From: a virus
DNA length: 45,367 nucleotides
IMG/VR virus record: IMGVR_UViG_3300049023_000013
Location: 1 to 45,367 of that record
Strand: one strand, 5' to 3'
Notes under the pieces: generated by a model
Databases searched by the model: none
What the model was told of the DNA's origin: nothing
The model's input: only the letters and a program-made list of their open reading frames with translations
In this document: positions 4,158 to 44,894 of the stretch, piece by piece
Position numbering within the stretch: position 1 is the stretch's first letter
How the letters are laid out: every line of letters starts with the position of its first letter
Made by a program: the position numbers and the translations under genes

Positions 4158-4587
4158 CTTGGCCGACCTTCAAAAGCGCATGTATGCCCGCGCCGGGGAA
4201 GTCGGCCAAGTCGCCAACGAAGCCAAGAAAGAAGTAGCGCGAACAATCGTCCGTTACTTGGTCAACATTACGCCGGTCGATACATCGCAAGCCTTGTCGA
4301 ACTGGCAAGCCCGCGACGGCTTCCCGGTCGCGTTCCCAATAGCCCCGTATTTCAGCGGGCAACTAGGGTCAACGCAAGCTTCTAGCGCCGAAAAGGCCAT
4401 AGCTGAAGCCAACGCCATTATTGCCAAGGCGAAGCCCGGCGAACCCATTTACCTTTCGAACGTCTTGCCGTATATCAAGCCGCTAGACGAAGGGTCATCA
4501 ACGCAGCATCCCGGCGGCTTTGTCCATGCTTCGGTTATTGTGGGCAAACTTGCGTTGCGCGACTTCAAATACGATTGGAAGAAATAA
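4150..4587 (+). CDS. HK97 gp10-like neck/tail-completion family protein
   Basis: 145 aa. The segments ARTIVRYLVNITPVDTSQALSNW and YLSNVLPYIKPLDEGSS resemble the HK97 gp10 family pattern (..P.DTG.L..s). Its position between GT and the tape measure is atypical. Confidence 0.45.
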   Translation: MGNLADLQKRMYARAGEVGQVANEAKKEVARTIVRYLVNITPVDTSQALSNWQARDGFPVAFPIAPYFSGQLGSTQASSAEKAIAEANAIIAKAKPGEPIYLSNVLPYIKPLDEGSSTQHPGGFVHASVIVGKLALRDFKYDWKK

Positions 4588-7500
4588 TGGCCGACGAACG
4601 GATTGACGTTGAAGTAACCGACAAAGTTTCGTCATCCGTTGAAGGTAAGCTTCGTGGCATTGGCGACGCGGCGGGCGATGCCCACAAGTATGTTGAACAG
4701 CTTAAAGCCGCTTTGTCTTCGATGAATGTTGCGGGCGCGCTTAAGGCTGAAGCCGCCGCCAATTCGACAACCCGCGCGTTGGCCCAACAAATGAACGCGC
4801 AAGCCCGTTTGACCGATGCTACGTCCAAGGGTGCGTTGGCCGATGCGAAAGCCGCCGTCGAAAAGCAAAAGCTGGCGACCGAAACGGCCCGCACGGAAGC
4901 CGCCACGGCCCGCGCCGCCGCTGCCCAATCCCAAGCCGCCCTTGCTGCCCTACGGGCGTCCGCCGCCGCCGACAGGGCAGCGAACAGCACGACTAGCTAT
5001 GCCGCCCGTGCCGAACGCCTGAAGTCGGCCCTTGACCCCGCCTACGCCGCCCAAAGCCGGTTCAATGCGGAAGTCGCCGAAGCGAAGACGCTGTTGGACA
5101 ACGGCGCAATCGGCATGAACACGTATGCGGACGCCGTAGCACAAGCGAACAATCGCTTGAAGGCTTCGGCGCAAGGCTTCAGCGCGGTTGCGCGCGGGGC
5201 TGGCACGTATTCCGCGAACATGAACAACGTCGCGGGTGCAACGGGTCTTGCCGGGCATCAAATGGGAAATCTTGTCGCCCAATTGAACGACGTAGGCGTA
5301 TCGTTGGCGGGCGGACAAAACCCGCTGTTGGTTCTTATCCAACAGGGTTCGCAAATTCAGTATTTGGCTTCGACGGTCGAAGGTGGCTTTACGACGTTGC
5401 TTAAGGCGACGACGGCCCTTGTCATCGGGCAACAGCAAGTCACGAACGCCAGCACGGCGGCGGCGACGGCGAACCTTGCGAACGCTTCGGCGGCTTCAAC
5501 GGCGGCGGCGGCACAAGCCGCGCAAGCTGGCATCGCAGCTAACGCCGTAATCGCTCAACAGGCATTGACCGTCGCGGAAACTGAAGCGGGCGGCGCGGCG
5601 GCACGTCTTGCCGTAGCGAACGCCGCATTGTCCAGCGCGCAAGCCGCCGTGAACGCTACGGCGGTTCCGACGACACAAGCTTTGACCGCGCTTGCTCTTG
5701 CTGAAGCCCGCGCTACGGCGGCGGCGCAAGCGGCTGTCATCGCGAACGCCGAACTAGCGACCGCAAACGCTGGCGTTGCCGCGTCCGCTGAAGCCGCCGC
5801 GTTGGCCGAACGGAACCTTGCAATGTCAACCGCCGGGACGGCGCTTGGCCTTGGCACGGTCGGCGCTATTATTGTGGGTATCGGGGCAGTTGCCGCGCCC
5901 GCTACGGCGAAGCTTGTTGCGTTCCACAAGGAACTTAACGAAAATTCGGGCATCAAAGAATACGTCAACACGCTTGGTCTTACGACGAAGGAATTGAAGA
6001 AGCTTGAAGACCAAACTATAACTTACGGCGACATGGCGTCGGGCGTATGGATGACGATTAAAGAAGGCGTCGCCGGACTTCAGCCCGTGTTCGACGCAAT
6101 CGGCGCGTTTATCATGGGAACCGTGGACCTTATTTGGAACACGCTTAAGAACTTCAGCTTCGGCATGACCGCATTGTTCAAGGGAACTTACACGGCGGTT
6201 ATTACGATTTGGAACCAATTCCCGGCGGCGTTCGCCGACCTATTCGCGCAAGCTGCGAACGCTGCTATCGGCGCGCTTGAATGGATTGCGAACAAAGCGG
6301 TTGACGTGTTGAACTATCTTGGCGGGTCGTTCGAAACCGTCACGCTTTCGCGTTGGGAAAACGCGAACGCCGGGGCAGCGGCGCGCATGGGTTCGGACCT
6401 TGTGTCGGGCTATACCGACGCCTTCCGCGAAGCCGAAAGCGGTTACAACGCATTTGTCAACCGTGTTGGCCAGAACGCCGACAAGGCAGCGCGCGACCGC
6501 CTGAAGACGGCGGCGCAAGCTATCATCGAAGACCGGGGCGCGGGTCCGAAGGCGAAGAAGGCCAAGGAAGACAAGACCGAAGAAAACCGGGCTATGGCGC
6601 TGGCCAACGTCAACCGCGAACTTGACAACGAAATTTCGCGCATGAAGCTTCTTAAGGACGAACGCGCAATTCAACAGCGTTACGACCAAATTGAAGAACA
6701 GCTTGCGCGTAAGAAGATTACGTTGACGGCGGCGGAAACGGCGGCGCTTAAGGAAAAGATTGCCGCAATTGAAGCCGACAAGTATGTTCAAACCGAACGC
6801 GACCGTATCATGGAAGAAGCCGAAGGGCCGACCCGTGATATGAACGCGGCTATTGACGCGGCAACCGACCTTTACGACCGGGGCGCAATTTCGGTCGAAC
6901 GCTATAGCAGCGAACTTCAGCGGGCAACCCGGTTGTTCGAAGAAGCGACCGACCCGCTTTACGCCATGAAGAAAGCCAACGCCGAAGCTACGGCGACGCT
7001 TGGTCTTTACGGCGATGCGCTGGCACGGGCGAACGACCTTCAGGCGATTAAGGCGGCATACGCCGAAAAGAACCTTTCGATTTACGACGCCGAAACCGGC
7101 AAGCTGAAGGAAGCGGTCGCCGCGCAACTTGCCGAAAACGAAGCCTTGCGGGCGAAGCAATATATCCAAGCGCAAGTTACGGCGGTCGTTGACCCGCTGT
7201 TGGCCGACCAACAAATGTTGGCTAACAAGGCTAATGTTTACGCCGAACTTAACCGCATGGCCGACGAATACAACCTAAGCGAAACACAACGGGCCGAAGC
7301 GCGCGTTGCGCTTGACCGCAAGTATCAAGAATTGCAGTTGAAGAACTATACCGGGTTCTTCGACACGTTGGCCGGTTTGTCGTCGTCGTCCAATTCGACG
7401 CTTGCGGCTATCGGCAAGGCGGCGGCGATTTCGCAAGCGACCATCAACATGTATGTCGCGGCGTCGGAAGCCCTGAAGCTTCCGTTCCCGGCCAACTTGC

Positions 7501-7859: not shown

Positions 7860-9031
7860 TGACATACGGCGTAGCAATCCAAGTCCCCGAAGTTCCGATA
7901 ACGGAAACTTGGTCTTGGATAACCGACATTGGCGTATCGTATAACGGGACCGAAGATAGGACCGCCCTTCTTCGGTATCCCCGGCGTTCGTTTTCAGGAA
8001 GCTTCGCCTTCGATGACGTGACAAGCTTTCGTCGGCATTTGGCGATGATGACTAAGCGGTATCGAACCGAATTTCAATTTCCGCTTTGGCAATATCAAAC
8101 GAAGCTTAAGGCGGCGGCTGGCATCGGGGACGAAACCGTTACAGTGAACGCCCGTCGCGGCGACTTCCGCGAAGGCCAAACCGTAATCGTCATCGAAGGA
8201 ACGACGTTCGAAACCATCGTTATCGAAAGCTTCGACGCGGTATCGCTTACGTTCGCCACGGCGCTTACCAAGGCTTATTCGGCCCGCGCCGTCGTATGCC
8301 CGGTCGTAACGGTCTTCACGGCGACGAACGCGGGCGTTTCGCGGCGGAACCCGGATGGCAGCGGAACAAGTTCTTTCAACTACGTCGAACGGTTGCCCAC
8401 ATTGCCGTTTGTGTCGCCGTTGAACGAAGCTGCTATTGCGACCTTCGACGGCTTGCCGGTTCTTCCATACGTGCCAATCGGCCAATCGTTCGAAGCTACG
8501 GTTGCGACCGGGCTTACGTCCGTCGATTATACCGGCCTTGTCGATATTGTTTCGCCTTGGACTTACGAACAATGGGGATACGCCTTGTCGTTCAAAGCTT
8601 CGGCAATTGGCAACGTGGACGATTTCGAATGGTGGCAACTATTCGCCGACACTATCCAAGGTTCGGAAAACCCTTTTCTTATGGCGACGAACCGCGCCGA
8701 CATGGAAATTGTTACGCCAGCTTTGCCAAGCGGCACGGGAATTACGGTCAAAGGCGACGAATATTCGCAGCACTATAACGGGCATGGCGGCTTTTCGCGC
8801 ATCTTCATTGATACCGACGCCGGGCGACACTACGCCAAAGTTACCGGCATAGTCGCCGTTGGCGGCAACGACCGCTTGGTTTTCACGCCAGCCCTGCCCG
8901 CCGGGACAGCATGGGGAACCGGGCAGCGCGTCGGGTTCTTGTTGAAACTTCGCAACAACGATGACAAGATGACGCTTCAGCATAGCGGGCTTTCGACCGT
9001 CGTTGGCTTGAACGTTAGGACCGTAGTTTAA
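7859..9031 (+). CDS. distal tail protein-like (pattern resembles DUF2460 / GTA g12-type)
   Basis: 390 aa with a TAATG overlap with the tape measure gene. The N-terminal pattern ...GTEDRTALLRYPRRSFSGSF..F..PLW resembles DUF2460-type proteins. It is the first gene after the tape measure. Confidence 0.5.
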   Translation: MTYGVAIQVPEVPITETWSWITDIGVSYNGTEDRTALLRYPRRSFSGSFAFDDVTSFRRHLAMMTKRYRTEFQFPLWQYQTKLKAAAGIGDETVTVNARRGDFREGQTVIVIEGTTFETIVIESFDAVSLTFATALTKAYSARAVVCPVVTVFTATNAGVSRRNPDGSGTSSFNYVERLPTLPFVSPLNEAAIATFDGLPVLPYVPIGQSFEATVATGLTSVDYTGLVDIVSPWTYEQWGYALSFKASAIGNVDDFEWWQLFADTIQGSENPFLMATNRADMEIVTPALPSGTGITVKGDEYSQHYNGHGGFSRIFIDTDAGRHYAKVTGIVAVGGNDRLVFTPALPAGTAWGTGQRVGFLLKLRNNDDKMTLQHSGLSTVVGLNVRTVV

Positions 9032-9831
9032 TGGCGACGAATACCGAACTTTACCGCTTCGCCGAACAAGCTACGGGTCTATTTTGGACCTATACAAGCG
9101 GCAATGAAGCCGTGACTTACGACGCTGGCGACGGCGACGAAGAATACGCCCCGGCGTCCATTTCACGTTCTGAAGCCGAAGTTAAAAACGAACTAAGCAA
9201 ATCGAACATTAACGTTCAAATTCCGCTAACGAACGAAGTTGCAATTCGTTGGATGCAAGACAACGGCGAAAAGATTGTTTCGCTTACCATCTTCGAACGC
9301 GAAAAGAACGGAACGGTCAACGTCGTTTGGAAGGGTCGGCTTGCGTCGATACTTCCCGACATGGCCGACGTAACGCTTAAGATGGAAAGCATTTTTACTT
9401 CGATGCGTCGGCCCGGTCTTCGGGCGCGCTATCAGCGTAGTTGCCGACATGCCCTTTACGGTCGCGGTTGCACCTTGGACCCGGCGGACTTCGAAATTGA
9501 CGCCAGCGTGTCCGCCGCCGCCGGTCGGACCTTCACCATAGCCGCCGCTGCTGCCCAAGACGACGGGTATTTCGTCGGCGGGATGCTTCGGGCTGGCGAT
9601 GGCACCCTATCCTATGTCACGGGCCATGTGGGCAACCAAATAACCGTTCAACGCCTGTCCTTCAGCTTGGCGACTGAAGTAAGCGAAGGCTTCCCCTTCG
9701 ACGTGAAACTTTATCCGGGTTGCGACCATTCGCGCGCGACTTGCAATGCGAAGTTTGCTAATCTGCCCAACTACGGCGGGTTCGACTTTATCCCGATTAA
9801 AAATCCTCTTGGCGGAAGTAGCATCGTATAA
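9031..9831 (+). CDS. DUF2163 / BR0599-family tail tip protein (GTA g13-like)
   Basis: 266 aa. The N-terminus LYRFAEQATGLFWTYTSG and the C-terminus LYPGCDHSRATCNAKFANLPNYGGFDFIP match the hallmark DUF2163 plus phage_BR0599 pattern. Confidence 0.7.
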   Translation: MATNTELYRFAEQATGLFWTYTSGNEAVTYDAGDGDEEYAPASISRSEAEVKNELSKSNINVQIPLTNEVAIRWMQDNGEKIVSLTIFEREKNGTVNVVWKGRLASILPDMADVTLKMESIFTSMRRPGLRARYQRSCRHALYGRGCTLDPADFEIDASVSAAAGRTFTIAAAAAQDDGYFVGGMLRAGDGTLSYVTGHVGNQITVQRLSFSLATEVSEGFPFDVKLYPGCDHSRATCNAKFANLPNYGGFDFIPIKNPLGGSSIV

Positions 9832-10252: not shown

Positions 10253-12908
10253 AGGCGGCAAAGCGCAAACCGTTGGATACAAGTATTATCTTGGGATGCA
10301 CCTTGGCCTTTGCCACGGACCTATTGACGCGATTACGCGCCTTCAAGTTGACGAACGCGACGCATGGGTTGGCACGAATAGCGGCGGAAGCATTAACGTA
10401 GCGGCTGAAGATTTGTTCGGCGGTTCGGGGCGCGAAGGCGGCGTTTCGGGCGTTGTTGACGTAGCTATGGGCGGTCCTGCCCAAACGCAAAACAGTTATC
10501 TTGTTTCGAAGCTTGGCGCGCTTATTCCAGCGTATCGCGGCATTGTCGGGCTAATCTTTCGCCAAGCGTATCTTGGCAACAATCCTTATCTGAAGACATG
10601 GGCCGCGCGCGGGCAGCGTATTCACGTAAGGCAAAATGGAATAGCGCAATGGTATGACGCACGGGCGGCGATTTATCCGCCGGTCTTGTCGGCGTCGCAA
10701 TCGTCATGGCGTTACTTGGTCGTTCCCCGCGCCGACGTAGTGAACCGTTCCGCGCCGGGCTTTGACGATAGCGCATGGCCCATCGGGTCCGCGCCGTTCG
10801 CCGATAAGCCTTGGTCGTTCCCCGGCAACTACGGCTTCGCAACAGTCCCGGCAACCGTAGTCCCGCAATCGCAAAAAGTATGGATGCGAACGACGGTCAA
10901 TTTGGCGAAGGTTCCTTCGGCGCTTCGGTTTGAAGCGTTCGTTGACAACGATTGCCAAGTATATGTCAACGGCGTTTTGGTCTTAACCCTTGGCGACCCG
11001 AACGGCAAATATTACGACAACGTTTTGTCGGGCGACCTTTTCAACGTCGGCACGAACTACGTTGCTGTTGTCGGTTCCGACCGGGACAGCGGGTCGGGCA
11101 ATTGGTTTTGGTTCGACTGGCGTTTGACGGACCTTACGACCGTTGACATGAACCCTGCCCACATTATCCGCGAATGCCTTACGGACCCCGATTGGGGCAT
11201 GGGATACACGGACGGCGACATTGACGACGCAAGCTTTATGGCAGCGGCGGACACGTTTTCAACCGAAGGGTTGGGCATGTCGCTTCTATGGGATAAGTCG
11301 AAGAATATTGAAGACTTCGTTGCGACCGTGAACCAACACGTTGACGCGGCGCTTTATGTGTCGCGCACGACGGGCAAGTTTGTTCTGAAGGCTATTCGGG
11401 GCGATTACGACGAAGACGATTTGCTTTCGCTGGACGAAAGCAATATTCAAAGCGTTACCGACCCGGTTAAGCTTTCCTTCGGCGAACTTACCAATTCGGT
11501 TACGGTCACTTATTGGGATGCTTCGACGGGCAAAGACGCGACCGTTACCGTAACGGACCCCGCGCTTGCACTTCAACAGGGCGTAATCATCAACGCGCCG
11601 GTTCAATATCCCGGCTTCACGAATGCCCGCAACGGAACGATTGCCGCCCAACGTGACCTTCGGGCGTTGTCTTCGCCGTTGCTGTCATGCACTATTCTAG
11701 CGCACCAAGTCGCGAAGGTCTTGAACATTGGCGACGTGTTCAAGTTCTCTTGGGCGAAATGGGGTATCGTAAATATGGTTATGCGCGTGACCGGCATAGC
11801 CTACGGAACCGGGCGCAATAAGCGGGTCAAAATCACATGTTCGCAAGACGTGTTCAACACGGACACGAACGTTGCCGTAACGGTCCCCGATGGAAGTTGG
11901 ACCGACCCTAGCCAACCGCCAACCGCTGTCCCCGAACAGTTGGCGACCGAAGCGCCGTATTACGAACTTGTTCAAACGCTTGGTCAAGCGGACACTGACA
12001 ACAAGTTGTTGACGCATCCCGAAATTGGATACGTCATCGGCGCGGCGGGTCGTCCTACGTCGGCTATCAACGCGCGCCTTAACACTGACAACGGCGACGG
12101 TTACGAAGATACTGGCGCGTTCGATTTCGCGCCTATCGGTTATCTGCAAACGAATATCGGCAAGCTTGAAACAACGTTCTTCCTTATCAACGGTCAAGAC
12201 TTTGACGAAGTTATTGCCGGGACGCATTTTCAGATTGGCGACGAACTATTGCGTATCGACGCAATAGACCCCGAAACCGGCGAAGTCGAAGTTGGGCGCG
12301 GCGTATTGGATACCGTGCCACAAAATCACTTGGCGGGCGACGTAGCTATGTTTTGGGATAGATACGCCGGGTTCGACCCGACCGAATACGTTATGTCAGA
12401 AATGATTGACGTAAAGATTGTGCCTATTTCGGGTTCGGGCGTATTCCCGCTTGACGAAGCTACGCCGATGGAAGTTACGCTTCAGTCACGGGCGGCGCGT
12501 CCTTATCCGCCGGGCGACTTCCGCATTAACGGCGAAAGCTACGCGCCGGGCGCATATTATGAAGGCGAAGTTACCGCCACATGGACGCATCGTAACCGTA
12601 TCGAACAAACCGGCGGCTATCTTGTGGACGCCAGCGAAGGCGACATTGGCCCCGAACCCGGCGTTACCTATCGCGTTCGCGTTTACATTGACGAAGTATT
12701 AGACCAAACAATTGAACCCGCCGTAAGTCCGCAAGACATTACGCCGACCGGAAGCGGCTTGGTTCGGGTCGAAGTGCATTCGTTGCGCGATGGCCTTTAC
12801 TCTTGGCAAGGTCCGTCGCATACGTTCATCAACAGCCGTTCGCGCCTAACTGAAGACGACGACGAACGTTACACGGAAGACGGCGACGCCCGGCTTATTG
12901 AGGATTGA
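10245..12908 (+). CDS. host-specificity / central tail fibre protein (lambda gpJ-like) with an inserted jelly-roll sugar-binding-like domain
   Basis: 887 aa. The N-terminus MGKGGKAQTVGYKYYLGMHLGLCHGPID is typical of J-like tip proteins. Residues about 150-295 resemble a GH2-N/galactose-binding jelly roll (W..PF...VWMRT..L....LRFEAFVDNDCQVYVNG...G.NYVAV). Confidence 0.75.
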   Translation: MGKGGKAQTVGYKYYLGMHLGLCHGPIDAITRLQVDERDAWVGTNSGGSINVAAEDLFGGSGREGGVSGVVDVAMGGPAQTQNSYLVSKLGALIPAYRGIVGLIFRQAYLGNNPYLKTWAARGQRIHVRQNGIAQWYDARAAIYPPVLSASQSSWRYLVVPRADVVNRSAPGFDDSAWPIGSAPFADKPWSFPGNYGFATVPATVVPQSQKVWMRTTVNLAKVPSALRFEAFVDNDCQVYVNGVLVLTLGDPNGKYYDNVLSGDLFNVGTNYVAVVGSDRDSGSGNWFWFDWRLTDLTTVDMNPAHIIRECLTDPDWGMGYTDGDIDDASFMAAADTFSTEGLGMSLLWDKSKNIEDFVATVNQHVDAALYVSRTTGKFVLKAIRGDYDEDDLLSLDESNIQSVTDPVKLSFGELTNSVTVTYWDASTGKDATVTVTDPALALQQGVIINAPVQYPGFTNARNGTIAAQRDLRALSSPLLSCTILAHQVAKVLNIGDVFKFSWAKWGIVNMVMRVTGIAYGTGRNKRVKITCSQDVFNTDTNVAVTVPDGSWTDPSQPPTAVPEQLATEAPYYELVQTLGQADTDNKLLTHPEIGYVIGAAGRPTSAINARLNTDNGDGYEDTGAFDFAPIGYLQTNIGKLETTFFLINGQDFDEVIAGTHFQIGDELLRIDAIDPETGEVEVGRGVLDTVPQNHLAGDVAMFWDRYAGFDPTEYVMSEMIDVKIVPISGSGVFPLDEATPMEVTLQSRAARPYPPGDFRINGESYAPGAYYEGEVTATWTHRNRIEQTGGYLVDASEGDIGPEPGVTYRVRVYIDEVLDQTIEPAVSPQDITPTGSGLVRVEVHSLRDGLYSWQGPSHTFINSRSRLTEDDDERYTEDGDARLIED

Positions 12909-12912: not shown

Positions 12913-13617
12913 ATGGCACAAAAACGCATTACCGACCTTGACCTAGCTTCGGCCCTGTTGGGCGGCGAACTATTCGAAGTTTCGCAGTTGTCCGACACGG
13001 TGAAGATTACGGCGACGACCCTTAGCGCGCTGGCGTCCGACAACAGCTATAACGATAGCGCGGCGGGCTTCGTTACCGCCGGGTTCGAAGTCGGCAACCG
13101 CGTTCGCGTCCAAGGCTTCACCGGCAATGTCGCCAACAACATATATGTGGGCATCATTACGGCGTTGACTACGGGCAAGATGACGATTGGCGGCACGGAC
13201 GGCGACGTTATCGTTGACGACGCGGCGGGCGAAAGCGTCACAATTACGAAATGGACTTCGGCCCGCATTGGCCTTGCTACGTTGGTAGCTTCGGTCAAAA
13301 CTTACGGTTCAACCGTGCAAACTGAAGCCGCCGATTACGTCGTTGACCCCGACGACGCGGGGAATTACATTCGCTTGACCAACGGCGGAACGAAAGACGT
13401 TACCGTTGACCCCGATGCGACGACGCCGCTTCCGGCGAACGGCGAATGGCATTTTCGAAATGTCGGCGCTGGCGACGCTACGTTCGTTGAAGGTTCCGGG
13501 GTTGTTATTCAACCGCCCAACGGCGGAACGCTTGTCGTTCCTGTTGACGGCACGGTAACGCTTAAGCGCGTCGCCGCCGATATTTTCGAACTACTTGGTC
13601 AAACGGTGGCGCTATGA
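12913..13617 (+). CDS. tail fibre protein
   Basis: 234 aa from the ATG at 12913. The N-terminus MAQKRITDLDLASALLGGELFEVSQ matches the common fibre N-terminal pattern (ITDLP.A..L.G.E...V.Q). It lies downstream of the J-like gene. Confidence 0.6.
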   Translation: MAQKRITDLDLASALLGGELFEVSQLSDTVKITATTLSALASDNSYNDSAAGFVTAGFEVGNRVRVQGFTGNVANNIYVGIITALTTGKMTIGGTDGDVIVDDAAGESVTITKWTSARIGLATLVASVKTYGSTVQTEAADYVVDPDDAGNYIRLTNGGTKDVTVDPDATTPLPANGEWHFRNVGAGDATFVEGSGVVIQPPNGGTLVVPVDGTVTLKRVAADIFELLGQTVAL

Positions 13618-14987: not shown

Positions 14988-17038
14988 AACAGTTCGACGG
15001 CTTCAGTCTTGTTGCCGTGCCAACCTAGCTTATCCAAGGTTTCGTAAGCCCGTTCGACATACCATTGGCGGTTCAAATCCGCCGGTATGTCGTCGGGCAG
15101 TTCCATAAGCGGCTTCGCGCCTTCCGTGCCGCCTACCTTGTTGCCGGACAAGACGTAGTTGATTTCGCCGAAGTGTCCCTTAGCTTGATACCAACGAACG
15201 ACCTTGCCTAGATATTCGCCGTCTTGATGCCCGCCGCCCCGAACATTCTTCACGGCGATAAAGCGGCGCATGTCGGCACATTCGGCAATCGTATCTTCGA
15301 ACCGCTTGCCTTCAGCAATGAACGCAACAAGCGCGTCGTTCAATATCAGATATTCGGGGTTCTTCGATAGCGGGCTATTCAGCGCCGACCCGCGTTCGCA
15401 ATACACGCCCGCGCCTTTCGACTTGATACCGGCCCGTTCGTCGGCGAAGGCGCTGGACGGCGAAGCTTCAAGTTCGTCGGTCCATTGCTTCGTCACTTCG
15501 TCAAACTTCAGCTTGGCCGCAAGATAGCTGTTCACGTCGCGCGACGCCAAGACCTTGTAACGGGTTTCTTCCGTTTCGAAGTCCGTCATAGCTTCCCATT
15601 GGGCGACAATCGAATGGAAGTCCGCGACCCTGCTATGTGGGCATTTGGTAACGAAGCCGTCCGTATTCGCCGACACAACGCCAAGCCCTGCTAGTTCGAC
15701 CGCTTCAATCAACATTAGAATGCAAAGCTGTCCGGTTATCGTCGTTTGGATTAGCAGCTTCGGCGAATACAACGCCGAATACATCGAACCAAGCTTTCCG
15801 AACGTGCCGTTGATAGTGATTTTCAGGCCGTCGCTTATGGTTGCCCACATGCGCGCCCCGGCACTGTCCCCGGCCTTCTTACATTCCTTCGACTTGGCCT
15901 TGGCTTCTAGGCGGCGTTCAACGATGGTGCGGAATACGGCAAGGAAGTTCGCGCCCAAATGGTCGGGCGTATAGCCGTTGTTTAGAATAATGAACGGATA
16001 GAACGACGCAACGTCGCGGTCGATTAGCGCGTAATGTTCGTCGGCCCTATGGGTTGTTGACTTTTCCGTTGAATGAAGACCGCCCATGCCCATTTTGTAA
16101 ACGGACTTGCCAAGCTTAATCTTCAGCCCGGCGATTTCTTCGGGCATCATGGGCGAACCGCCCTTGTCTAGCCGGAAGGTCGAACGAAGGACCGTATCAA
16201 GTGCGCGCTGAAGTTCTGGCGTTTGGAACCGAACGAACGACGGCGGCGTATATTGAAATTCAAAGTCTTCGTCAAAGTCGGGACGCTTCGGCCAATAGCC
16301 GGTAAGCTTCTTTAGTTCCGTGCAAATGACGGTTTCGGCAACTTGGGCGTCGGACTTCGAACGAAGGTCGGTCTTGTATTCCGCCGACATGGCTTCGCGA
16401 AGTTCAATGCCGCCCGCCAAGCTATGCCAAAGGCTTTCGGTATTGTCGCAATCGTTACAGCAATATTCCCGTATGTCGTCCATGTCTTCGAAGGACAACA
16501 TGGCGTCGGGTTCAATCGGAAGTTCTTGCATCCTCTTGACATGCAAACGGGCGGCATAGGTCTTCAACGAAGTATCGGGCAGCGGCGCGACTTCGATAAT
16601 GTCGATATGATTGTAACCGGGATTGACGTTGTGGTAAATTTTGCCTTCTTTAATGATTTCGTCGGACATATCCTTAAGGTTCGACGTGTCGGCGTTCTGA
16701 ATAGCAAGTTGAACCATCGGCAAGTCATACTTGTTGCCGTTGAAGCTGATTACGCGGAAGAACCACATTGCATATTTAAGCGTTTCCCCGAAGCTGAAGT
16801 TGCCCGCGCCGCGCTGTTCAAGATAGAAATATTTGCCGGTTTTGACATGCTTAAACATTGCAAGCCAATAGTTCCGGTAACATTCCGTATCTAATATTAC
16901 GTCGTCGCCCGCCGCAAATTCCGTGAACGGGTCAAGCGAATATTCGCGATACTTCGGGGCATACTTCTTCTTTCGCAGCGGCCCGCTATACCGCTTGCGC
17001 TTCAATGAAAACGGGGAAGGCTTGTCGTCAAAGAACAT
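14984..17038 (-). CDS. DNA polymerase, family-B-like, with 3'-5' exonuclease domain
   Basis: 684 aa from the ATG at 17038 (TAATG overlap with the upstream gene; the ORF track extends to 17152). Exonuclease motifs: ILDTE, NGNKYDLPM, YCCNDCD. Polymerase motifs: DVASFYPFII (DxxSLYPS-like), KITINGTFGKLG (KxxxNSxYG-like), SANTDGF (DTD-like). Confidence 0.8.
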   Translation of the reverse strand: MFFDDKPSPFSLKRKRYSGPLRKKKYAPKYREYSLDPFTEFAAGDDVILDTECYRNYWLAMFKHVKTGKYFYLEQRGAGNFSFGETLKYAMWFFRVISFNGNKYDLPMVQLAIQNADTSNLKDMSDEIIKEGKIYHNVNPGYNHIDIIEVAPLPDTSLKTYAARLHVKRMQELPIEPDAMLSFEDMDDIREYCCNDCDNTESLWHSLAGGIELREAMSAEYKTDLRSKSDAQVAETVICTELKKLTGYWPKRPDFDEDFEFQYTPPSFVRFQTPELQRALDTVLRSTFRLDKGGSPMMPEEIAGLKIKLGKSVYKMGMGGLHSTEKSTTHRADEHYALIDRDVASFYPFIILNNGYTPDHLGANFLAVFRTIVERRLEAKAKSKECKKAGDSAGARMWATISDGLKITINGTFGKLGSMYSALYSPKLLIQTTITGQLCILMLIEAVELAGLGVVSANTDGFVTKCPHSRVADFHSIVAQWEAMTDFETEETRYKVLASRDVNSYLAAKLKFDEVTKQWTDELEASPSSAFADERAGIKSKGAGVYCERGSALNSPLSKNPEYLILNDALVAFIAEGKRFEDTIAECADMRRFIAVKNVRGGGHQDGEYLGKVVRWYQAKGHFGEINYVLSGNKVGGTEGAKPLMELPDDIPADLNRQWYVERAYETLDKLGWHGNKTEAVELF

Positions 17039-28541: not shown

Positions 28542-29110
28542 CCCCGAACGCGATTACACGCCCGACGACGTGTTGACGTGCGACGATGCGTTGTCCTTGG
28601 CCGTCATCGGTTACAAGGTGCGCGCCGTCGATATGGCCGAAGGCACGTTCGTTGATTACAACTTTGCGGGCTGGCGCATCAATCATGCCGCCGGGGCTTC
28701 GTCGGGTTGGTCGGCACGAACGATTGACTACGCCGCCGATTGGCACGTTCTGCCCGACGAACATTACGACGCCTATAAGCGCGTTATCATGGAACGCGAC
28801 GGCATCGTTGAACGCGACAAGGCCGAAGCGAACACCAAATGGGGACGGCCAACCGTGGCACCGGACATTCAAAAGCTAGGCCGGGCGTTGCGCCCTGTCC
28901 CGTCGTTCGAAGTGCCTGTTGGGGCGGTCGTGCGTGATTGGGGGGCTGAAGCCCGCCGCCGTGGTCGCCAGCCCGCCGCCCGCGCCCCATGTGGGCAAAT
29001 GGGGCAAGCCGGTTGAATGTGCGCCTTTCACCGGACCCGACGCCGACGCATACCATAAGACGTTGCCGCCGGTCGTCCCAAAGAAGGACAAATGGGGTCG
29101 CCCAAAATGA
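28531..29110 (+). CDS. KWG[RK]P-repeat protein interrupted by a +1 frame change at a G6 run (sequencing indel, pseudogene or recoding)
   Basis: Frame A (ATG 28531) reads ...NTKWGRPTVAP...VVRDWG and then decays into Arg/Ala-rich sequence up to the stop at 29016. Frame B, from the G6 run 28940..28945, reads GLKPAAVV...HVGKWGKPVE...KDKWGRPK with its stop at 29110. Frame B has no ATG and is ATGA-coupled to the next gene. Confidence 0.55.
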
Positions 29111-31595: not shown

Positions 31596-31655
31596 GCCCC
31601 TGTTGGGCGTAAGCTGGCCCGCCCCCATGTGGGCAATCCAAGGAAGGACAACTTT

Positions 31656-32402
31656 ATGAACGAAAAAGAATTTCGCACGGGCAAAGACGCCAGCGGAAAC
31701 AACATCGGCGCGCACTTCGACTATATGGCCGAATGCGATAAGACGTGTTCCGTTGAATTTCACCCCGAACAAGTCGAAGTAACCGATATGCGTTACGTCC
31801 TTATGGGCGTGAAGGGTTTTGCCGAAGACTTGAACCTTATCAAGAAACTGTTGTTTCGCGGCAAAACGCGCAACGACTTGAACTTTCCGCCGGTCATCAA
31901 ACCGACGCTTCACGACCTTATCGAAGGGTTGTCCGCAATCAACGCATGGTCGCCCGCCGACATTGACGTTCTTCATGGTGCGGTCGGTGTCATTACTGAA
32001 GCCGGGGAAGTCGCCGAATATCTGCTGAAGTTCCTTGAAGGCAACGGCTTCGACCGTGTTAACGTCATGGAAGAAGCGGGCGACGTGTCGTGGTATGTCG
32101 TGCGGTCGCTTCGGGGCATCGGCCTTACGCTTGACCAATCGAACCGTGCGAATATCGACAAGTTGCGCGGTCGGCACGGCGAAGCGTTCGACGTGTTCCG
32201 CGATGCGAACCGCGACCTTCAGGCCGAACATTCCAAGCTTGAAGACGCCTTCAAGTCCGCCGCGCCCGATGCGCCTTTGCTGCCCGGCGTCGAAGTCGTC
32301 AAGAACCCTGCCCACATGGAAGCGCGCGGCGATATGGCGGATATGGCCGACCGTATCCGCGACGCCAACAACGCGCATGACATGAAGACGACGCGCGGCT
32401 AG
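31656..32402 (+). CDS. MazG-like nucleotide pyrophosphohydrolase domain protein
   Basis: 248 aa from the ATG at 31656 (SD AAGGAAGGA). The core LHGAVGVITEAGEVAEYLLK...VMEEAGDVSWYVVR...NIDKLRGRH matches the MazG EAGE...EE.GD...N..KL..R pattern. The N- and C-terminal extensions are unassigned. Confidence 0.7.
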   Translation: MNEKEFRTGKDASGNNIGAHFDYMAECDKTCSVEFHPEQVEVTDMRYVLMGVKGFAEDLNLIKKLLFRGKTRNDLNFPPVIKPTLHDLIEGLSAINAWSPADIDVLHGAVGVITEAGEVAEYLLKFLEGNGFDRVNVMEEAGDVSWYVVRSLRGIGLTLDQSNRANIDKLRGRHGEAFDVFRDANRDLQAEHSKLEDAFKSAAPDAPLLPGVEVVKNPAHMEARGDMADMADRIRDANNAHDMKTTRG

Positions 32403-34363: not shown

Positions 34364-35275
34364 ATGGCCAAGACTTCGTTCAAACCTTCGCTTTCCTTGA
34401 CGCTTGCCCATGAAGGCGGCTTCGTCAATCATCCCAAAGACCCCGGCGGCGCGACGAACAAAGGCGTTACGCAAAAGGTCTATGACGATTATCGGGTTCG
34501 CAAGGGCGAAGCTACGCGAAGCGTTCGCTACATTACGTCCGCCGAAGTCAACGACATTTACAAGAACCAATATTGGGACGCCGCCAAGTGTGACGCGCTG
34601 CCCGCCGGACTTGATTACGCCGTGTTCGACTACGCCGTTAACAGCGGCGCGGGCCGCGCCATCAAAGACCTTCAGCGCACGATTAATAGTGTGGGCAACA
34701 TGGTCGGCACGACGACGAAGATTGGCGTTGATAGCCAAATTGGTTCCGCCACAATCAACGCCGCATGTGCCATCGCAGCGATTGACGAAGTTGCGCTTAT
34801 CGAAGCGTATTGCAATCGTCGCATGGATTTCTTGCATTCGCTGAAGACCTTCGGAACGTTCGGCAAAGGCTGGACCCGTCGCGTCCTTGGCGACAAGCCG
34901 AACAAGAACGCGGACGAAGGCGACAACGGCGTAATCGACTACGCCGTTAAGATGGCCAACGATGATTTGACATTCCCGTTGAAGGCTGGCGAACTTCCGA
35001 CGCCGATTGGCGCGAAGGCTGGCGAAGTCAACGGCAAAGCGCCCGAAGCTGCGAAGGCCGTTACCAAGACGCCCGAAGGCGTCGGCGCGGTCGTTGCTGG
35101 CGTCGGCGTTTCCGGCGCAACCGTTATCCAAGCCGCCGACGCTGTTAAGGCGCACATTGACGATACGACAATTGGACGTATCGCCGCAATTGTCTTCGGC
35201 GTTTTGATGATTGCGGGCGTCGGCCTTGTTGTTTACACGTTTTGGCAGAAACGCCGGGAACTTTCGGCGAAATAA
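34364..35275 (+). CDS. endolysin: GH108 lysozyme plus PG_binding_3 domain with a C-terminal transmembrane anchor
   Basis: LAHEGGFVNHPKDPGGATNKGVT is the GH108 signature. RRMDFLHSLKTFGTFGKGWTRRV is the PG_binding_3 pattern. The C-terminus has the TM helix IAAIVFGVLMIAGVGLVVYTFW followed by KRRE. Confidence 0.8.
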   Translation: MAKTSFKPSLSLTLAHEGGFVNHPKDPGGATNKGVTQKVYDDYRVRKGEATRSVRYITSAEVNDIYKNQYWDAAKCDALPAGLDYAVFDYAVNSGAGRAIKDLQRTINSVGNMVGTTTKIGVDSQIGSATINAACAIAAIDEVALIEAYCNRRMDFLHSLKTFGTFGKGWTRRVLGDKPNKNADEGDNGVIDYAVKMANDDLTFPLKAGELPTPIGAKAGEVNGKAPEAAKAVTKTPEGVGAVVAGVGVSGATVIQAADAVKAHIDDTTIGRIAAIVFGVLMIAGVGLVVYTFWQKRRELSAK

Positions 35276-36716: not shown

Positions 36717-37220
36717 ATGTCATGGGCGCATCAACAACCCGTAATCTTCAGCGACGAAGACGAATTGCAATTGAAGTTGCAGTTTGCCCACATGTGCGCC
36801 GAAGACCCGGCCAACGCCGCGTTGCACGGTTACACGCTGTTTCCCGGCGAACACAATTACGGGCGCGCGATGGCCGCGCAAAAATGGATTAACGACCCGT
36901 TCGTTCAACGCGAAATCAGCCGTCTTGTTAAGGAAGACCCGACGCCGTTTGTTCCCGACGAATTGGCGTTGGCGAAAGAACTTATCGACAAGGCGCGTAG
37001 CGTAGGCGACCCGAAGGACAGCTTAGGCTTTTACAAGCTGTTCGCCGACGTAATGCAATACACGGGGCAGAACAGCAACAACGTTCAAGTCAACGTAATT
37101 CAGAACGTAATCGAAGTGCCTTCCCGCGCGACCGATGACGAATTGCCAATCTTGGAAGGCCAATGGGCCGAACAACAACGACAGTTGATGGCCGATGCGC
37201 GTTCGTCCCGCCCGTCATAG
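36717..37220 (+). CDS. terS: terminase small subunit (by position)
   Basis: 167 aa from the ATG at 36717 (a TTG at 36708 is possible). It lies directly upstream of terL and overlaps it by 26 nt. Confidence 0.5.
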   Translation: MSWAHQQPVIFSDEDELQLKLQFAHMCAEDPANAALHGYTLFPGEHNYGRAMAAQKWINDPFVQREISRLVKEDPTPFVPDELALAKELIDKARSVGDPKDSLGFYKLFADVMQYTGQNSNNVQVNVIQNVIEVPSRATDDELPILEGQWAEQQRQLMADARSSRPS

Positions 37221-38757
37221 GGGGAAAGACAATGCCGCGCCCGAACGTAACACGGTATGGGCATACCTTAAGGGAACTTCGCAAGAAATTGCGTTGAAGA
37301 CCCCGGCGAACCATATCTTGTATCACGGGACGCGCGGGCCGGGCAAAACCGATTGCCAGCTAATGCGCTTCGCTAAGAATGTGGGCAAGGGCTATGGCAG
37401 CTATTGGCGCGGCGTAATCTTCGACCGCAAATACAAGAACCTTGACGACCTTATATTGAAGGCCAAGCGTATCTTCCGCCAAGCCTTCCCCGAAGCTAGG
37501 TTTCTTGAAAGCAAGTCGGACCTTAAATGGGTTTGGCCGACTGGCGAAGAACTGTTGTTTCGGCAATTCCTACGTAGCGACGACTATTGGAACTATCACG
37601 GGCAAGAATTTCCGTTCATTGGTTGGAACGAACTTGCCAAGTATCCGAATAGCGAACCTTACGACGCAATGATGAGTTGTAACCGTTCGTCGTGGACGCA
37701 AGAGAAAAACAGCGCGGTCAACGAAGACGGGTCGTATGTTACGCCGCCTATGCCGCTTGAAGTCTTCAGCACAACGAACCCTTACGGGCCGGGTCACAAT
37801 TGGGTTAAGGCGCGCTTTATCGACCCTTGCCCGTCCGGCGTAATTCATCGGACTGTTGTTAAGGTCTTTCATCCCGGCCTTAAGAAAGAAGTCGAAATTG
37901 AACGTCGTCAACAAGCCATTTTCGGGTCGTATAAAGAAAACCCGTATCTTGACCCGTTGTATATCGCCGAACTTGACAGCATAACCGACCCGAACAAACG
38001 GGCGGCTTGGTTGGAAGGCGATTGGGACATTGTTGCGGGCGGCGCGCTGGACGACGTATGGCGCAAAGAAATTCACATTCTGCCCCGCTTCACGGTCCCC
38101 GATACTTGGTATATCGACCGTTCGATGGATTGGGGTTCGACGCATCCTTGTTCAATCGGATGGTGGGCCGAAGCTAACGGCGAAGAAGCCGAAGTTGAAT
38201 TTGACGACGGTTCAACGTGGACGTTCTGCCCGCCGCGCGGGACGCTTATTCGTATCGGCGAACTATACCTTACGGAAAAGTTCGGGACGAACAAAGGTCT
38301 TCGCATGTCATCAACGGCGGTTGCTGAAGCCGTGCGCGATTACGAAATAAAGCAAATGGAATTAGGATGGTTCCCGAAGCAACCGCAACCGGGTCCGGCG
38401 GACAACCAAATTCGGAACGTCACGGATAACGCCGTTGATACCATCGAAAAGAAGATGGCCGACGTTGGCATTTGTTGGACCGAAAGCGACAAGTCGCCGG
38501 GGACGCGAAAAGTCGGTTTGCAGTTGATGCGCGATAGGTTAGAAGCTGCTATGAAGCGACCGGAAGACCCGGCGCTTTACGTTATGGAAAATTGCCGGGC
38601 CGCAATTGCCACATGGCCGACCTTGCCGCGTGACGACGACGACCCCGACGACGTGGATACGGACGCGGAAGACCATCCTTACGATGACGCCCGCTATCGC
38701 ATCCTAAACAGTGACAACCGCGCGCCGACGAAGTTGAAGATTAAGCGGCCAACGTAA
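37195..38757 (+). CDS. terL: terminase large subunit
   Basis: 520 aa. Walker A is YHGTRGPGKTD. The C-terminal nuclease region MDWGSTHPCSIGWWA ... DAEDHPYDDARY is typical of terminase RNase-H-like domains. The gene precedes the portal gene. Confidence 0.85.
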   Translation: MRVRPARHRGKDNAAPERNTVWAYLKGTSQEIALKTPANHILYHGTRGPGKTDCQLMRFAKNVGKGYGSYWRGVIFDRKYKNLDDLILKAKRIFRQAFPEARFLESKSDLKWVWPTGEELLFRQFLRSDDYWNYHGQEFPFIGWNELAKYPNSEPYDAMMSCNRSSWTQEKNSAVNEDGSYVTPPMPLEVFSTTNPYGPGHNWVKARFIDPCPSGVIHRTVVKVFHPGLKKEVEIERRQQAIFGSYKENPYLDPLYIAELDSITDPNKRAAWLEGDWDIVAGGALDDVWRKEIHILPRFTVPDTWYIDRSMDWGSTHPCSIGWWAEANGEEAEVEFDDGSTWTFCPPRGTLIRIGELYLTEKFGTNKGLRMSSTAVAEAVRDYEIKQMELGWFPKQPQPGPADNQIRNVTDNAVDTIEKKMADVGICWTESDKSPGTRKVGLQLMRDRLEAAMKRPEDPALYVMENCRAAIATWPTLPRDDDDPDDVDTDAEDHPYDDARYRILNSDNRAPTKLKIKRPT

Positions 38758-40265: not shown

Positions 40266-41179
40266 TGGCCGACTTGTTCGACGTTCTAGTTCGGCATCAA
40301 GTCTATCTTGAAGGGCTGAAGCGCGGACGCAACGCCGACTTCCCGAAGGTTCTAGGGCGGCTTGACGCGGTATTGCGGGCTAGTCTTGCCCACATTACTT
40401 ACGACAACTTGGGCGACGCGAACAAGCGCCAGCTTAACGCGGTCTTGGTCGAACTTCGGCGTTCAATGCGATTGGTCTTCACGCCTTGGTTGAACGAACT
40501 TGTCGTTTGGCTTGAACGTTACATGCAAGTCGAAGTCGGCGCGTTCGCCCAATACTTCGAAACCGAAGCCGACCCCGACGCAATCTTTGCCGCGTCGAAG
40601 ACCGAACCAATGGGCGCAAACGGCATGTTTTGGCTTCCGTTCCTAACGGGGTCAACGACCTATACAATGTCGCGCATCGAACGCTTGGTCGTCATGGGTT
40701 ACGCTAACCGGAAGACGAAAGCCGAAGTCGCTACGTCGTTTCTAGGGACGAAGAACAACCGATATAAAGACGGCATTGGTCGCTTGCTGGACAACGCTTC
40801 GACCGCCGCGCTTAATACCGTAATGCAACACATGTCGGCGCAAGCCGCGATGACTACGGCGAAGAAGGTATTCGGTAAATACGAATGGGTTTCCGTTATT
40901 GACGACGGCACGACGAACATTTGCCTTGGACGCGACGGCAAGATTTACGTCTTCGGTCGCGGCCCTGTCCCGCCCGCCCATGTTGGTTGCCGGTCAATCA
41001 TCGTCCCCGACTATGGCAGGGCTTCGACGCCCGAATTGCGCTTCAGCATGTGGGCAGCTTCGCAACCCGCCGCCTTTGTCAACGATGCCTTTGACGCCGC
41101 GCCGTCGTCGCGTTATGAAGGTTCGACGGCGATTTCGTTGGAGCAATACCAAGGCAAGCGCGCGTTGATTTTAAGTTAA
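40265..41179 (+). CDS. minor head protein, Mu gpF / SPP1 gp7-like head morphogenesis
   Basis: 304 aa with a TAATG overlap with the portal gene. The segment VSVIDDGTTNICLGRDGKIY...GPVPPAHVGCRS matches the Phage_Mu_F signature (D.rT...C...dG......PP.H..CR). Confidence 0.65.
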   Translation: MADLFDVLVRHQVYLEGLKRGRNADFPKVLGRLDAVLRASLAHITYDNLGDANKRQLNAVLVELRRSMRLVFTPWLNELVVWLERYMQVEVGAFAQYFETEADPDAIFAASKTEPMGANGMFWLPFLTGSTTYTMSRIERLVVMGYANRKTKAEVATSFLGTKNNRYKDGIGRLLDNASTAALNTVMQHMSAQAAMTTAKKVFGKYEWVSVIDDGTTNICLGRDGKIYVFGRGPVPPAHVGCRSIIVPDYGRASTPELRFSMWAASQPAAFVNDAFDAAPSSRYEGSTAISLEQYQGKRALILS

Positions 41180-43348: not shown

Positions 43349-43843
43349 ATGGCTTTGATTGTTGAAGACGGAACCGGGAAGGACGACGCAACTTCGTTCG
43401 TAACCCGTGCGGAATACATCGCCTATGCGGCGGCGCGCGGCGTCGTCGTTGCGGACGTTGACGCATCCGACATTGACTTAATCAAAGCCGTCGATTTCCT
43501 GTTGGCCGAATGCTGGCGTGGCAACGTGACGGTTGCGGCGCAAGCGTTGCCTTTCCCGCGAACCCTTTACAACTTCGACGGAACGTTGGCCTATCCGTCC
43601 GACGAAGTGCCGACGCCTATTAAGCGCGCCCAAATGATGCTTGCGCTTGCGTCAAAGTCCGGCGTTGATCTTATGCCAAACTTCGAAGGCGGCGCTTCAG
43701 TCACGCGCGAAAAGATTGGCCCTATCGAAACCGAATATTCGGAAGCGTCGCTTTACAACGCGCCGTCATTCCCCGCCGTTACCGCTGCCATCGCGCCCTA
43801 TACATGTGGGCAAGGTGGAAGCTTCCGCGTGATTCGCGTATAA
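43349..43843 (+). CDS. head-tail adaptor (gp6-like / DnaT-like N-terminal pattern)
   Basis: 164 aa. The N-terminus MALIVEDGTGKDDATSFVTRAEYIAYAAARG is the pattern common to phage head-tail connector proteins. Confidence 0.55.
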   Translation: MALIVEDGTGKDDATSFVTRAEYIAYAAARGVVVADVDASDIDLIKAVDFLLAECWRGNVTVAAQALPFPRTLYNFDGTLAYPSDEVPTPIKRAQMMLALASKSGVDLMPNFEGGASVTREKIGPIETEYSEASLYNAPSFPAVTAAIAPYTCGQGGSFRVIRV

Positions 43844-44229
43844 TGGGCGTGTTCGACCGCCAAATTGCGACGGCCAAGCGCCTTATCGCGAAGTATGGCG
43901 AAGACTGCCTTTGGTTTAAGCCGGGCGCGAAAGACCCGGCGGCGAAGCCTTGGGTTGGAACCGAAGTCGCGCCGAACGACCCTACGCCGGTTAAGATTGC
44001 GTTCTTTCCGAACGGCGGCGACAATTCGCTTGCCGCCGTCATCGCCGCGCTTGGCGATACCGACGTGAACGTTGCCGCTGAATACGGCCTTATGGCCGCT
44101 GTTGATTTCGACCCTGCTACGTCCGACACTTTGACGGATAGCACGGGGCGGAACGTTGAAATCGTCAAGATGACGCCGCTTAGTCCGAACGGTGAAATCA
44201 TCTTGTGGAAGCTTTGGATTGAACGCTAA
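43843..44229 (+). CDS. neck protein (head-closure-like), by position
   Basis: 128 aa from the ATG at 43843 (TAATG overlap; Met14 of ORF 43804..44229). Confidence 0.45.
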   Translation: MGVFDRQIATAKRLIAKYGEDCLWFKPGAKDPAAKPWVGTEVAPNDPTPVKIAFFPNGGDNSLAAVIAALGDTDVNVAAEYGLMAAVDFDPATSDTLTDSTGRNVEIVKMTPLSPNGEIILWKLWIER

Positions 44230-44894
44230 TGCCGACGACCCGTCAAGTTGCGCGCGGCGAAATGTTCGACATACTCTTGTCGGCTGGCGACGACTTGCGC
44301 GGGCTTCACGCCGACCTTAACGCCTTCGAAATGCGCTGGCAGGGCATTGAAACACCCGACGAAGTGTCCGAAGCTTCGAAGCAAATGCAAGGCAAATTTT
44401 GGACCCGTGCGTTGACAATGGTTGTTGATAGCCGCCAAGTTGCCCACATGATGACCGACGAACCCGGCGGTTCGCCCGCTAACTGGCGCACGGTCGGACA
44501 AATAATTGTTCAAGTCTTCGCGCCCCGGAACGTCAAGGACAGTTATAATACTGGCGACTTGCTGGCCGGGGTAATTGCCGATATATACCGCAACGTCGAA
44601 ACGCCTTCCGGGGTCGGCTTTGAAAAGTCCGCCGCCAAAGAAGCTACGTCCGAACATTCTTTTTGGCGTTGGAACGTAACGGTTGACTTTGAATTTTACG
44701 AAAGACCGTCGCTTCAAGGAAAGTCGTTCAAAGAATTTTTGTCTGTTGACGGACCCGGCGACGGTCTTTCAATAATAGCAGATAGGTTGCGGGTTGATAT
44801 TGAAAATTTGCCTAGCGTTAGCGACCCTAGCGACGGCTTAGAATTGGAAGGTTCCGACCTTAGAATAAACATCGAAAGTCTTCCAAACGGATAA
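44229..44894 (+). CDS. neck/tail-terminator-like protein with a C-terminal tandem repeat
   Basis: 221 aa with a TAATG overlap. The C-terminus carries DGLSIIADRLRVDIENLP followed by DGLELEGSDLRINIESLP. Confidence 0.45.
   Translation: MPTTRQVARGEMFDILLSAGDDLRGLHADLNAFEMRWQGIETPDEVSEASKQMQGKFWTRALTMVVDSRQVAHMMTDEPGGSPANWRTVGQIIVQVFAPRNVKDSYNTGDLLAGVIADIYRNVETPSGVGFEKSAAKEATSEHSFWRWNVTVDFEFYERPSLQGKSFKEFLSVDGPGDGLSIIADRLRVDIENLPSVSDPSDGLELEGSDLRINIESLPNG

Follow-up and report, generated by a model that had tools for sequence, protein, structure and literature searches.

The window analysed here is the whole of IMG/VR virus record IMGVR_UViG_3300049023_000013, a stretch of 45,367 nucleotides (nt), and the element in question is a short word, TGTGGGCA, that is scattered over both of its strands. 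It is related to Sphingomonas phage Eidolon, with 91.6% identity, but circularly permuted against it, window position 37195 corresponding to Eidolon position 1. Lucius and Kharn are more distant from the window (76%), and Birtae and Kimi are remote. Positions 1-127 are exactly repeated at 45241-45367, an assembly overlap that holds no TGTGGGCA site. Hence, the record is a circular assembly with a true length of 45,240 base pairs. The genome is organized into a rightward virion-gene block, a leftward replication block and a second rightward block that begins with a primase/helicase gene. The leftward block encodes a polymerase of family B, a sliding clamp, an SF2 helicase and an exonuclease, as well as an SSB and an ATPase. 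The primase gene (24378..26786, plus strand), assigned from its open reading frame (ORF) and homology, encodes an 802-amino-acid (aa) primase-polymerase/helicase, which we propose below as the probable reader of the word.

An initial annotation, made by hand from the sequence alone, had drawn attention to this word, and exact counting confirms its numbers and coordinates. The 10-mer ATGTGGGCAA occurs 13 times on both strands together, the 9-mer ATGTGGGCA 18 times (10 plus, 8 minus, the split that had been annotated) and the 8-mer core TGTGGGCA 22 times, with 12 copies on the plus and 10 on the minus strand between positions 4539 and 44448, a density of 0.485/kb. The remark that 11 of the 18 copies have a C directly before the motif is likewise correct, with CATGTGGGCA present 11 times. 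The counts were compared with dinucleotide-preserving shuffles and an order-3 Markov model for the window, and with synonymous-codon shuffles within each gene (n = 300) for Eidolon. None of these null models, all of the kinds that the annotation had named as decisive, comes near the observed counts. Dinucleotide shuffles gave means of 0.06 (maximum 2) for the 10-mer, 0.28 for the 9-mer and 0.85 for the 8-mer. TGTGGGCA is the top 8-mer of the window (Markov expectation 0.40, z = 34), and the only word among the top 9- and 10-mers that is not of low complexity belongs to the same motif. In Eidolon, 24 copies were observed, whereas the 300 codon shuffles gave 3.96 on average and never more than 8. 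An artefact of codon or amino-acid usage is ruled out by the synonymous-codon shuffles together with the Markov nulls. Each of the three reading frames is represented among the Eidolon sites, in sense as well as antisense orientation, and 22 of the 24 are intragenic, which bears out the view that the signal acts at the level of DNA and independently of frame. The sequences flanking the window copies are unrelated to one another, and the word is therefore not part of a longer repeat or mobile element.

The motif is also strict. All 24 one-mismatch variants of TGTGGGCA pooled amount to just 20 occurrences in the window, so that the neighbours are not enriched and a strict 8-mer is recognizable; a general excess of similar words, which the annotation had considered as a refutation, is thus absent. 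The T-GTGG-GCA arrangement is invariant in 22/22 window sites and in 500/500 sites pooled from other viral loci, an invariance that follows from the construction of the search. GTGGG occurs 30 times in the window, 22 of them inside the full motif, where a naive expectation uncorrected for composition would be about 89, and TGTGG occurs 50 times, again 22 inside the motif. Partial versions of the motif hence look depleted, and there may be selection against near-cognate sites.

On the plus strand of the window, sites were found at 4539..4546 (conserved in Lucius and Kharn), 9627..9634 (a ATGTGGGCAA copy) and 22719..22726 (both placed by exact count), 13146..13153 (conserved), 15636..15643 (conserved, antisense in the DNA polymerase B gene) and 17876..17883. 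The last lies in the sliding-clamp gene, and a plus-strand site in or near the clamp gene is present in 11 of 11 compared genomes. Further plus-strand sites are 27247..27254 (about 460 nt downstream of the primase gene, conserved in Kharn), 28990..28997 and 41049..41056 (both included in the comparison with Lucius and Kharn), 34690..34697 (in the lysozyme gene), 37380..37387 (185 nt into the large terminase gene) and 43805..43812, for which the syntenic plus-strand site is intergenic in KL1, PA73, RcTitan and Halfdan. The site at 31628..31635 (plus) is intergenic, just upstream of the MazG-like gene, as originally annotated, and its Eidolon equivalent at 37755 is intergenic as well. Minus-strand sites lie at 4679..4686 (conserved in Kharn), 8394..8401 (a ATGTGGGCAA copy, conserved in Lucius and Kharn), 11156..11163 (conserved), 15842..15849 and 44441..44448 (both changed to CGTGGGCA in Lucius and Kharn), 18607..18614 and 36785..36792 (both lost in Lucius and Kharn), 32309..32316 (exact count) and 40387..40394 (included in the comparison with Lucius and Kharn). 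Sites are thus spread from 4.5 to 44.4 kb and do not form the cluster typical of origin iterons. Two pairs lie closest together, at distances of 140 and 206 nt, and both are inverted. The closer one, formed by the sites at 4539 (plus) and 4679 (minus), flanks the start of the tape-measure gene; this inverted pair (4539-4686) is kept in Eidolon, Lucius and Kharn.

Many of these positions are conserved. Of 17 sites that could be aligned with Lucius and Kharn, 13 are intact, while the divergence of the flanks (identity 0.81) would leave 3.2. Degradation affects four sites, all of them on the minus strand, and spares the plus-strand sites without exception. Several sites are syntenic even across phages of different host classes, for example one located about 142 nt ahead of the terminase stop codon, one in the clamp gene and one following the capsid-proximal gene. 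When the virion genes are set on the plus strand, 54-83% of sites are plus in every relative, and among 500 sites in uncultivated viral loci (described below) 316 are found on the strand of the primase gene. The bias persists in the leftward-transcribed block, with 25 plus against 8 minus sites summed over 11 genomes, while GC and AT skew flip there. The initial annotation had described the word as used without regard to gene direction, which is borne out, and as lacking polarity, which holds only in part: both strands are indeed used, but there is a consistent plus bias, and the plus copies are better conserved and more even. A promoter or other transcription signal is ruled out, since most sites are intragenic in both orientations and since the strand bias keeps its sign in the leftward-transcribed block, where the composition skew does not.

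The sites are evenly spaced when each strand is taken separately. We describe this evenness by the coefficient of variation (CV), that is the standard deviation of the gaps divided by the mean gap with the sites placed on a circle; random placement gives about 0.9. Plus-strand spacing in the window has a CV of 0.36 (13 sites, mean 3.5 kb, P = 0.0003), and the values in Eidolon, Lucius and Kharn are 0.34, 0.28 and 0.27. The most regular case is Halfdan (MH362766.1), a phage of E. coli K-12, with 12 virion-strand sites about 3.6 kb apart and a CV of 0.17. In two phages that carry variants of the word, JenP2 (0.38 and 0.49) and VpKK5 (0.24 and 0.31), each strand is even for itself, and both strands pooled are less even. 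Per-strand evenness fits a process that acts on single strands, such as priming, and not an architectural protein that binds duplex DNA.

The word is carried by phages of very different hosts. The annotation had pointed to related phages and to host DNA as informative comparisons, and only the first reveals enrichment. TGTGGGCA is the top over-represented 8-mer in nine named relatives: the Sphingomonas phages Eidolon (24 copies), Lucius (19), Kharn (18), Birtae (15) and Kimi (18), RcTitan of Rhodobacter (17), KL1 of Burkholderia (18), phage 73 of Pseudomonas (19) and Halfdan of Escherichia (20). Loki of Acinetobacter carries 13 copies, and its top 9-mer is ATGTGGGCA. These phages span six host genera in the alpha-, beta- and gammaproteobacteria. 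We also analysed 80 uncultivated viral loci that were picked solely by a homologue of the window primase (39-56% identity, GC content 34-58%). They contain 500 copies of TGTGGGCA in 1.29 Mb (0.39/kb); it is the top 8-mer in 43 of the 80, and in about 14 others the top word overlaps it or differs from it by one base. Candidate host DNA is different. Sphingomonad sequences, sampled as the neighbourhoods of 16S genes from 120 genome loci, a sample in which the host strain itself is not contained, hold only 8 copies over 798,834 nt; this density of 0.010/kb, compared with 0.485/kb for the window, is below chance. Carli (OR225223.1, positions 1-50000), a phage of the same Sphingomonas strain as Birtae and Kimi, has zero copies of TGTGGGCA. 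Its primase is of another type (Prim-Pol + PriCT-2 + VapE-like). Carli has dispersed words of its own, GGAAAT[CG]ATTT and GAAACGATTT, with 14-17 copies each (z = 22-33).

These data bear directly on the resemblance to DNA-uptake signals that had been noted initially. A host uptake signal, or a host genome signature acquired by the phage, would account for short, exact, frame-independent copies at about one site per 2 kb. The DNA uptake sequences (DUS) of Neisseria and the uptake signal sequences (USS) of Haemophilus, like Chi and KOPS, are short, exact, over-represented and frame-independent words found about once per 1-2 kb. They are, however, a property of the host genome and its machinery, whereas TGTGGGCA is scarce in the sampled sphingomonad DNA and travels with the phage replication module. 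Neither the over-representation in the host nor the restriction to a host lineage that mark DUS and USS is seen. The scarcity in sphingomonads, the absence from Carli and the identical word in phages of six unrelated host genera, together with the three variants in E. coli phages described next, let the uptake reading fail, and we regard it as hardly credible.

Sister words are found in more distant relatives that share the replication genes. CAjan (E. coli) and PBPA162 (Pseudomonas) have TGTGGTTA (41 and 33 copies per 50 kb), JenP2 (E. coli) has TGTGGTCA and TGTGGTTA (31 and 17 per 50 kb), VpKK5 (Vibrio) has TGTGGCCA and TGTGGTCA (19 and 18 per 50 kb), and RHEph04 (Rhizobium) has words of the CTGTGG(A/T)C type. 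TGTGGTTA, TGTGGTCA and TGTGGCCA are strict, and all retain TGTGG. Halfdan, CAjan and JenP2 share one host, E. coli K-12 MG1655, and use three different strict words, so the reader must be encoded by the phage.

The same comparison weighs on the idea that the word is the target of a DNA modification, of host defence or of a repair factor, for example host DnaA. In its favour, the reverse complement TTGCCCACA with its CCACA resembles the DnaA box TTATCCACA at 7 of 9 consensus positions, and some relatives encode genes for deazaguanine modification. Three strict variants in phages of one E. coli strain are difficult to reconcile with any such factor, and no modification enzyme was found among the scanned window proteins. 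Targets of defence systems are normally avoided, rather than enriched and conserved. A DnaA box proper, TT(A/T)TNCACA, was rejected as TTGCCCACA has C, not T, at position 4, and as phages of one and the same E. coli strain carry the variants TTAACCACA and TTGACCACA, which leaves no single specificity per host. We consider this group of explanations very improbable.

What the phages with the word have in common is their replication module. In RHEph04 the terminase is unrelated and the virion module is another one, but this phage shares the replication module and keeps a TGTGG word. Thus, the word tracks the replication genes and not the packaging or structural genes, and a packaging signal is ruled out by this phage. 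The word occurs together with the primase gene, independent of host and virion module. All phages with dispersed words encode a separate DNA polymerase and a clamp, and co-inherited with the primase are the SF2 helicase, a Cas4-like exonuclease, SSB, Sak4 and a small Cro-like helix-turn-helix (HTH) protein. The conserved helicase and Cas4-like exonuclease, along with the orientation bias of the sites, give some substance to a Chi-like signal at which a phage helicase and a Cas4/RecB-family exonuclease would switch from resection to recombination-dependent replication. Such a role is improbable, if marginally less so than a modification or host-factor target. Between 17 and 46% of sites lie in the opposite orientation, and the match to published primase recognition sequences (see below) would have to be a coincidence. 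Chi sites are not known to be evenly spaced. A polar host sequence of the Chi or KOPS type was rejected separately: only 54-83% of sites lie on one strand, the same word is used despite different host machineries, and three E. coli phages have different words.

Among the module proteins, the primase-polymerase/helicase is the one for which recognition of such a word can be traced to characterized relatives. Its residues 5-261 match the structures of NrS-1 PrimPol (6k9a/6a9w, E = 3e-22) and of a primase-helicase (7ola, E = 2e-25). An NrS-1-type helix-bundle domain (aa 231-282, window 25068..25223, plus strand) is predicted by Pfam PF22763 with E = 1.6e-7, above the curated cut-off. The catalytic motifs DxD and SxSGxGxH are conserved across 11 phages, an ATPase motif GxGK is present, and the protein extends for about 150 aa past the ATPase core. 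The window hence encodes a primase-polymerase of the AEP type with a helix-bundle domain, and its word has the GTG/GTGG core with a fixed T on the 5' side. In the enzymes of pRN1 and NrS-1 the helix-bundle domain binds the template recognition site (PMC8718748). According to two reports, priming by NrS-1 PrimPol depends on the 8-nt template 5'-TTTGGTTA-3', 5'-GTGG-3' and 5'-GTGA-3' are even more efficient sites, and synthesis begins with the first base that lies upstream of the site (PMC8718748; PMC7102993). TGTGGTTA is identical to TTTGGTTA at 7 of 8 positions and differs in one base, and TGTGGGCA holds GTGG after the invariant T. The option of a recognition site for a phage protein, one of those left in the initial annotation, is where the evidence points, given the association with the replication module and the GTGG sites of the primase homologue.

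The comparison with NrS-1 shows both how close and how different the two systems are. The enzymes are homologous (AEP plus NrS-1-type helix-bundle domain), and the sites are alike in being 8 nt long, asymmetric and built around (T)GTGG. The 3' half differs, GCA in the window word against TTA in the NrS-1 site. In the NrS-1 genome (AB746912), the region 17062-17440, within about 400 nt directly after the primase gene, contains TGTGGTCA, two copies of TGTGGTTA, the single genomic TTTGGTTA and 11 AAGTGTAAC iterons in both orientations. The putative origin was placed at this locus by Chen et al. (PMC7102993). NrS-1 has sites only there, beside the primase gene. Its PrimPol is itself the replicase, a separate polymerase and clamp are lacking, and sites would be required at the origin alone. 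The window, in contrast, has 22 dispersed copies on both strands, conserved and even, and a separate polymerase and clamp.

This origin cluster also feeds a rival explanation, in which the words are duplex loading or origin sites for the same primase-helicase, bound by its C-terminal part, so that the genome would have many dispersed origins. The roughly 150 aa beyond the ATPase core would be available for binding, related words cluster with the 11 iterons beside the NrS-1 primase gene, and the P4 primase-helicase binds octamer iterons. Set against this are the evenness per strand and not of the pooled sites, which duplex binding does not predict, and the lack of a local site cluster near the primase gene in the window. 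In addition, NrS-1 PrimPol residues 1-300 are reported to be enough for site-specific priming (PMC8718748). We therefore judge dispersed duplex origins to be unlikely, and prefer sites that are read on the single-stranded template.

Other known systems are informative for this preferred template-site reading. The P4 alpha primase-helicase with its iterons TGTTCACC at ori and crr offers an octamer and a multifunctional protein of about 780-800 aa, but its iterons are clustered at two loci and bound as duplex by a C-terminal domain. The ORF904 primase of the archaeal plasmid pRN1 shares a GTG core on a single-stranded DNA template, reading by a helix bundle and a primer start just 5', and differs in a motif of 3 nt for which no genome-wide patterning has been reported. 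The primase sites of T7 (GTC) and T4 (GTT/GCT) are comparable as cryptic template signals that fix the starts of lagging-strand primers. However, these primases are of the unrelated DnaG/TOPRIM type, and sites of 3 nt are frequent by chance, with no detectable over-representation or spacing.

A second protein of the module might read the word instead. Candidates are a Cro-like HTH(-GIY-YIG) protein, a VRR-NUC nuclease and the DUF7173 protein, and the word could serve strand-specific nicks, as in phage T5, or architectural binding. Immediately before the primase gene, an ORF (23869..24366, plus strand) encodes a fusion of a Cro-like HTH with a GIY-YIG nuclease. Its HTH part (aa 1-65) is 77% identical to a 102-aa Eidolon protein, the GIY-YIG domain is C-terminal, and RcTitan gp36 has the two parts in reverse order. 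Candidate genes are co-inherited with the motif, this fusion is present, and regular strand-specific sites would also suit programmed nicks. Most motif-bearing phages, in contrast, have the HTH part without the nuclease. Cro-like HTH proteins usually bind paired or palindromic operators and not a lone asymmetric octamer. Recognition of GTGG is known biochemically for the primase homologue (PMC8718748) and for none of these proteins. A different binding or cutting protein thus deserves to be kept in mind, but with little weight, about the same as that of duplex origins. The DUF7173 protein (23059-23820, minus strand, E = 6e-26) is a conserved protein of unknown function at the head of the leftward replication operon.

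Taken together, TGTGGGCA probably represents dispersed recognition sites of the phage's own primase, that is hard-wired priming points, and we infer the identity of the reader, the primer start and the fork logic from the observations above. The helix-bundle domain would bind the GTGG-containing word on the unwound single-strand template, and primer synthesis would start opposite the invariant T just 5' of GTGG, which would make A the first base of each primer. Extension would then fall to the separate DNA polymerase of the phage and its sliding clamp. If every 3-4 kb of strand needs a priming point, selection would keep the word whatever the reading frame. A plus-strand site would prime leftward synthesis, which is the lagging strand for a fork moving rightward, in the direction of the virion genes. 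Plus sites, being more numerous, conserved and even, would then be the main start points of Okazaki-type fragments of about 3.5 kb, and minus-strand sites would serve forks of the opposite direction.

Several observations weigh against a primase reader and have to be considered. The link to the primase rests on about 30% identity over about 250 aa to NrS-1. Recognition by the NrS-1 enzyme is reported to be flexible, with GTG being sufficient (PMC8718748); as one-mismatch words are not enriched in the window, a primase reader would have to be more stringent. Covariation of word and primase gives a mixed picture. The TTA variant is common to CAjan and PBPA162, which have the mutually closest PrimPol N-termini (42-44%), while CAjan is nearer to JenP2 by terminase, and Loki keeps TGTGGGCA though its PrimPol N-terminus is only 29-33% identical to those of other TGTGGGCA phages. 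The co-inherited module genes are not separable from the primase by co-occurrence alone, and together with the HTH(-GIY-YIG) protein they leave some room for programmed nicks or a different binding protein. In 9NA and rho14, whose PrimPol homologue is distant and limited to the N-terminal part, a strong dispersed TGTGG word was not found, and the pattern is thus limited to the clade with the full-length primase-helicase, polymerase and clamp. Finally, GC and AT skew follow transcription and hold no information on fork direction.

Beyond the window, a host-spanning group of lytic siphoviruses, comprising Septimatrevirus-, Lokivirus-, Kilunavirus- and Titanvirus-like phages, Queuovirinae and relatives, may write a lagging-strand priming grid into its genomes, with a strict 8-nt word that is read by a primase-polymerase/helicase of unusual sequence specificity and placed evenly at about 2-3.5 kb per strand. 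We put this wider proposal forward as a tentative one, less secure than the priming role of the sites themselves. The starts of Okazaki-type fragments would then be fixed and predictable, enzyme and 3' half of the word (GCA, TTA, TCA, CCA) would evolve together, and the conserved intragenic positions would be held by selection.

Primase recognition sequences as such are already known, and an 8-nt site for an NrS-1-type enzyme has been published. The genome papers of KL1, Loki and Birtae/Kimi make no mention of such a word being distributed genome-wide, evenly on each strand and at conserved positions, and text searches with the word or its variants brought up nothing but primers and an incidental entry in a table of ribosome-binding sites. 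An evenly spaced and conserved word distribution across a host-spanning phage clade therefore seems to be new, as we found no description of it in the literature available to us. If the priming role is true, priming in these phages is deterministic rather than stochastic, and the sequence itself shows where discontinuous fragments start. This would open fork direction, the size of fragments and the specificity of the primase to direct tests in tractable phages such as Halfdan, which grows on E. coli, and Pseudomonas phage 73. It would explain a strong and so far unremarked constraint at the DNA level on coding sequences across hundreds of phage genomes. The word would be a simple annotation marker for this replication module, and a primase-polymerase family with a tunable 8-nt specificity could be of use in site-directed priming. 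More generally, a strong signal in a phage that looks like an uptake sequence need not reflect the host.

A few further observations concern the relatives and the remaining genes. Loki and Halfdan are classified in one genus, and their large terminases are 73% identical, while their primase N-termini are only 33% identical. This contrast suggests that the primase was either replaced or diverged very fast, with the TGTGGGCA word being kept. In the window, the gene at 33533-34222 (plus strand) encodes a conserved DUF7303 protein of unknown function (E = 6e-64), which the initial annotation had listed as a DNA-binding candidate. The stem of a rho-independent terminator annotated in Loki consists of two inverted sites at 9528-9559 with a distance of 24 nt.

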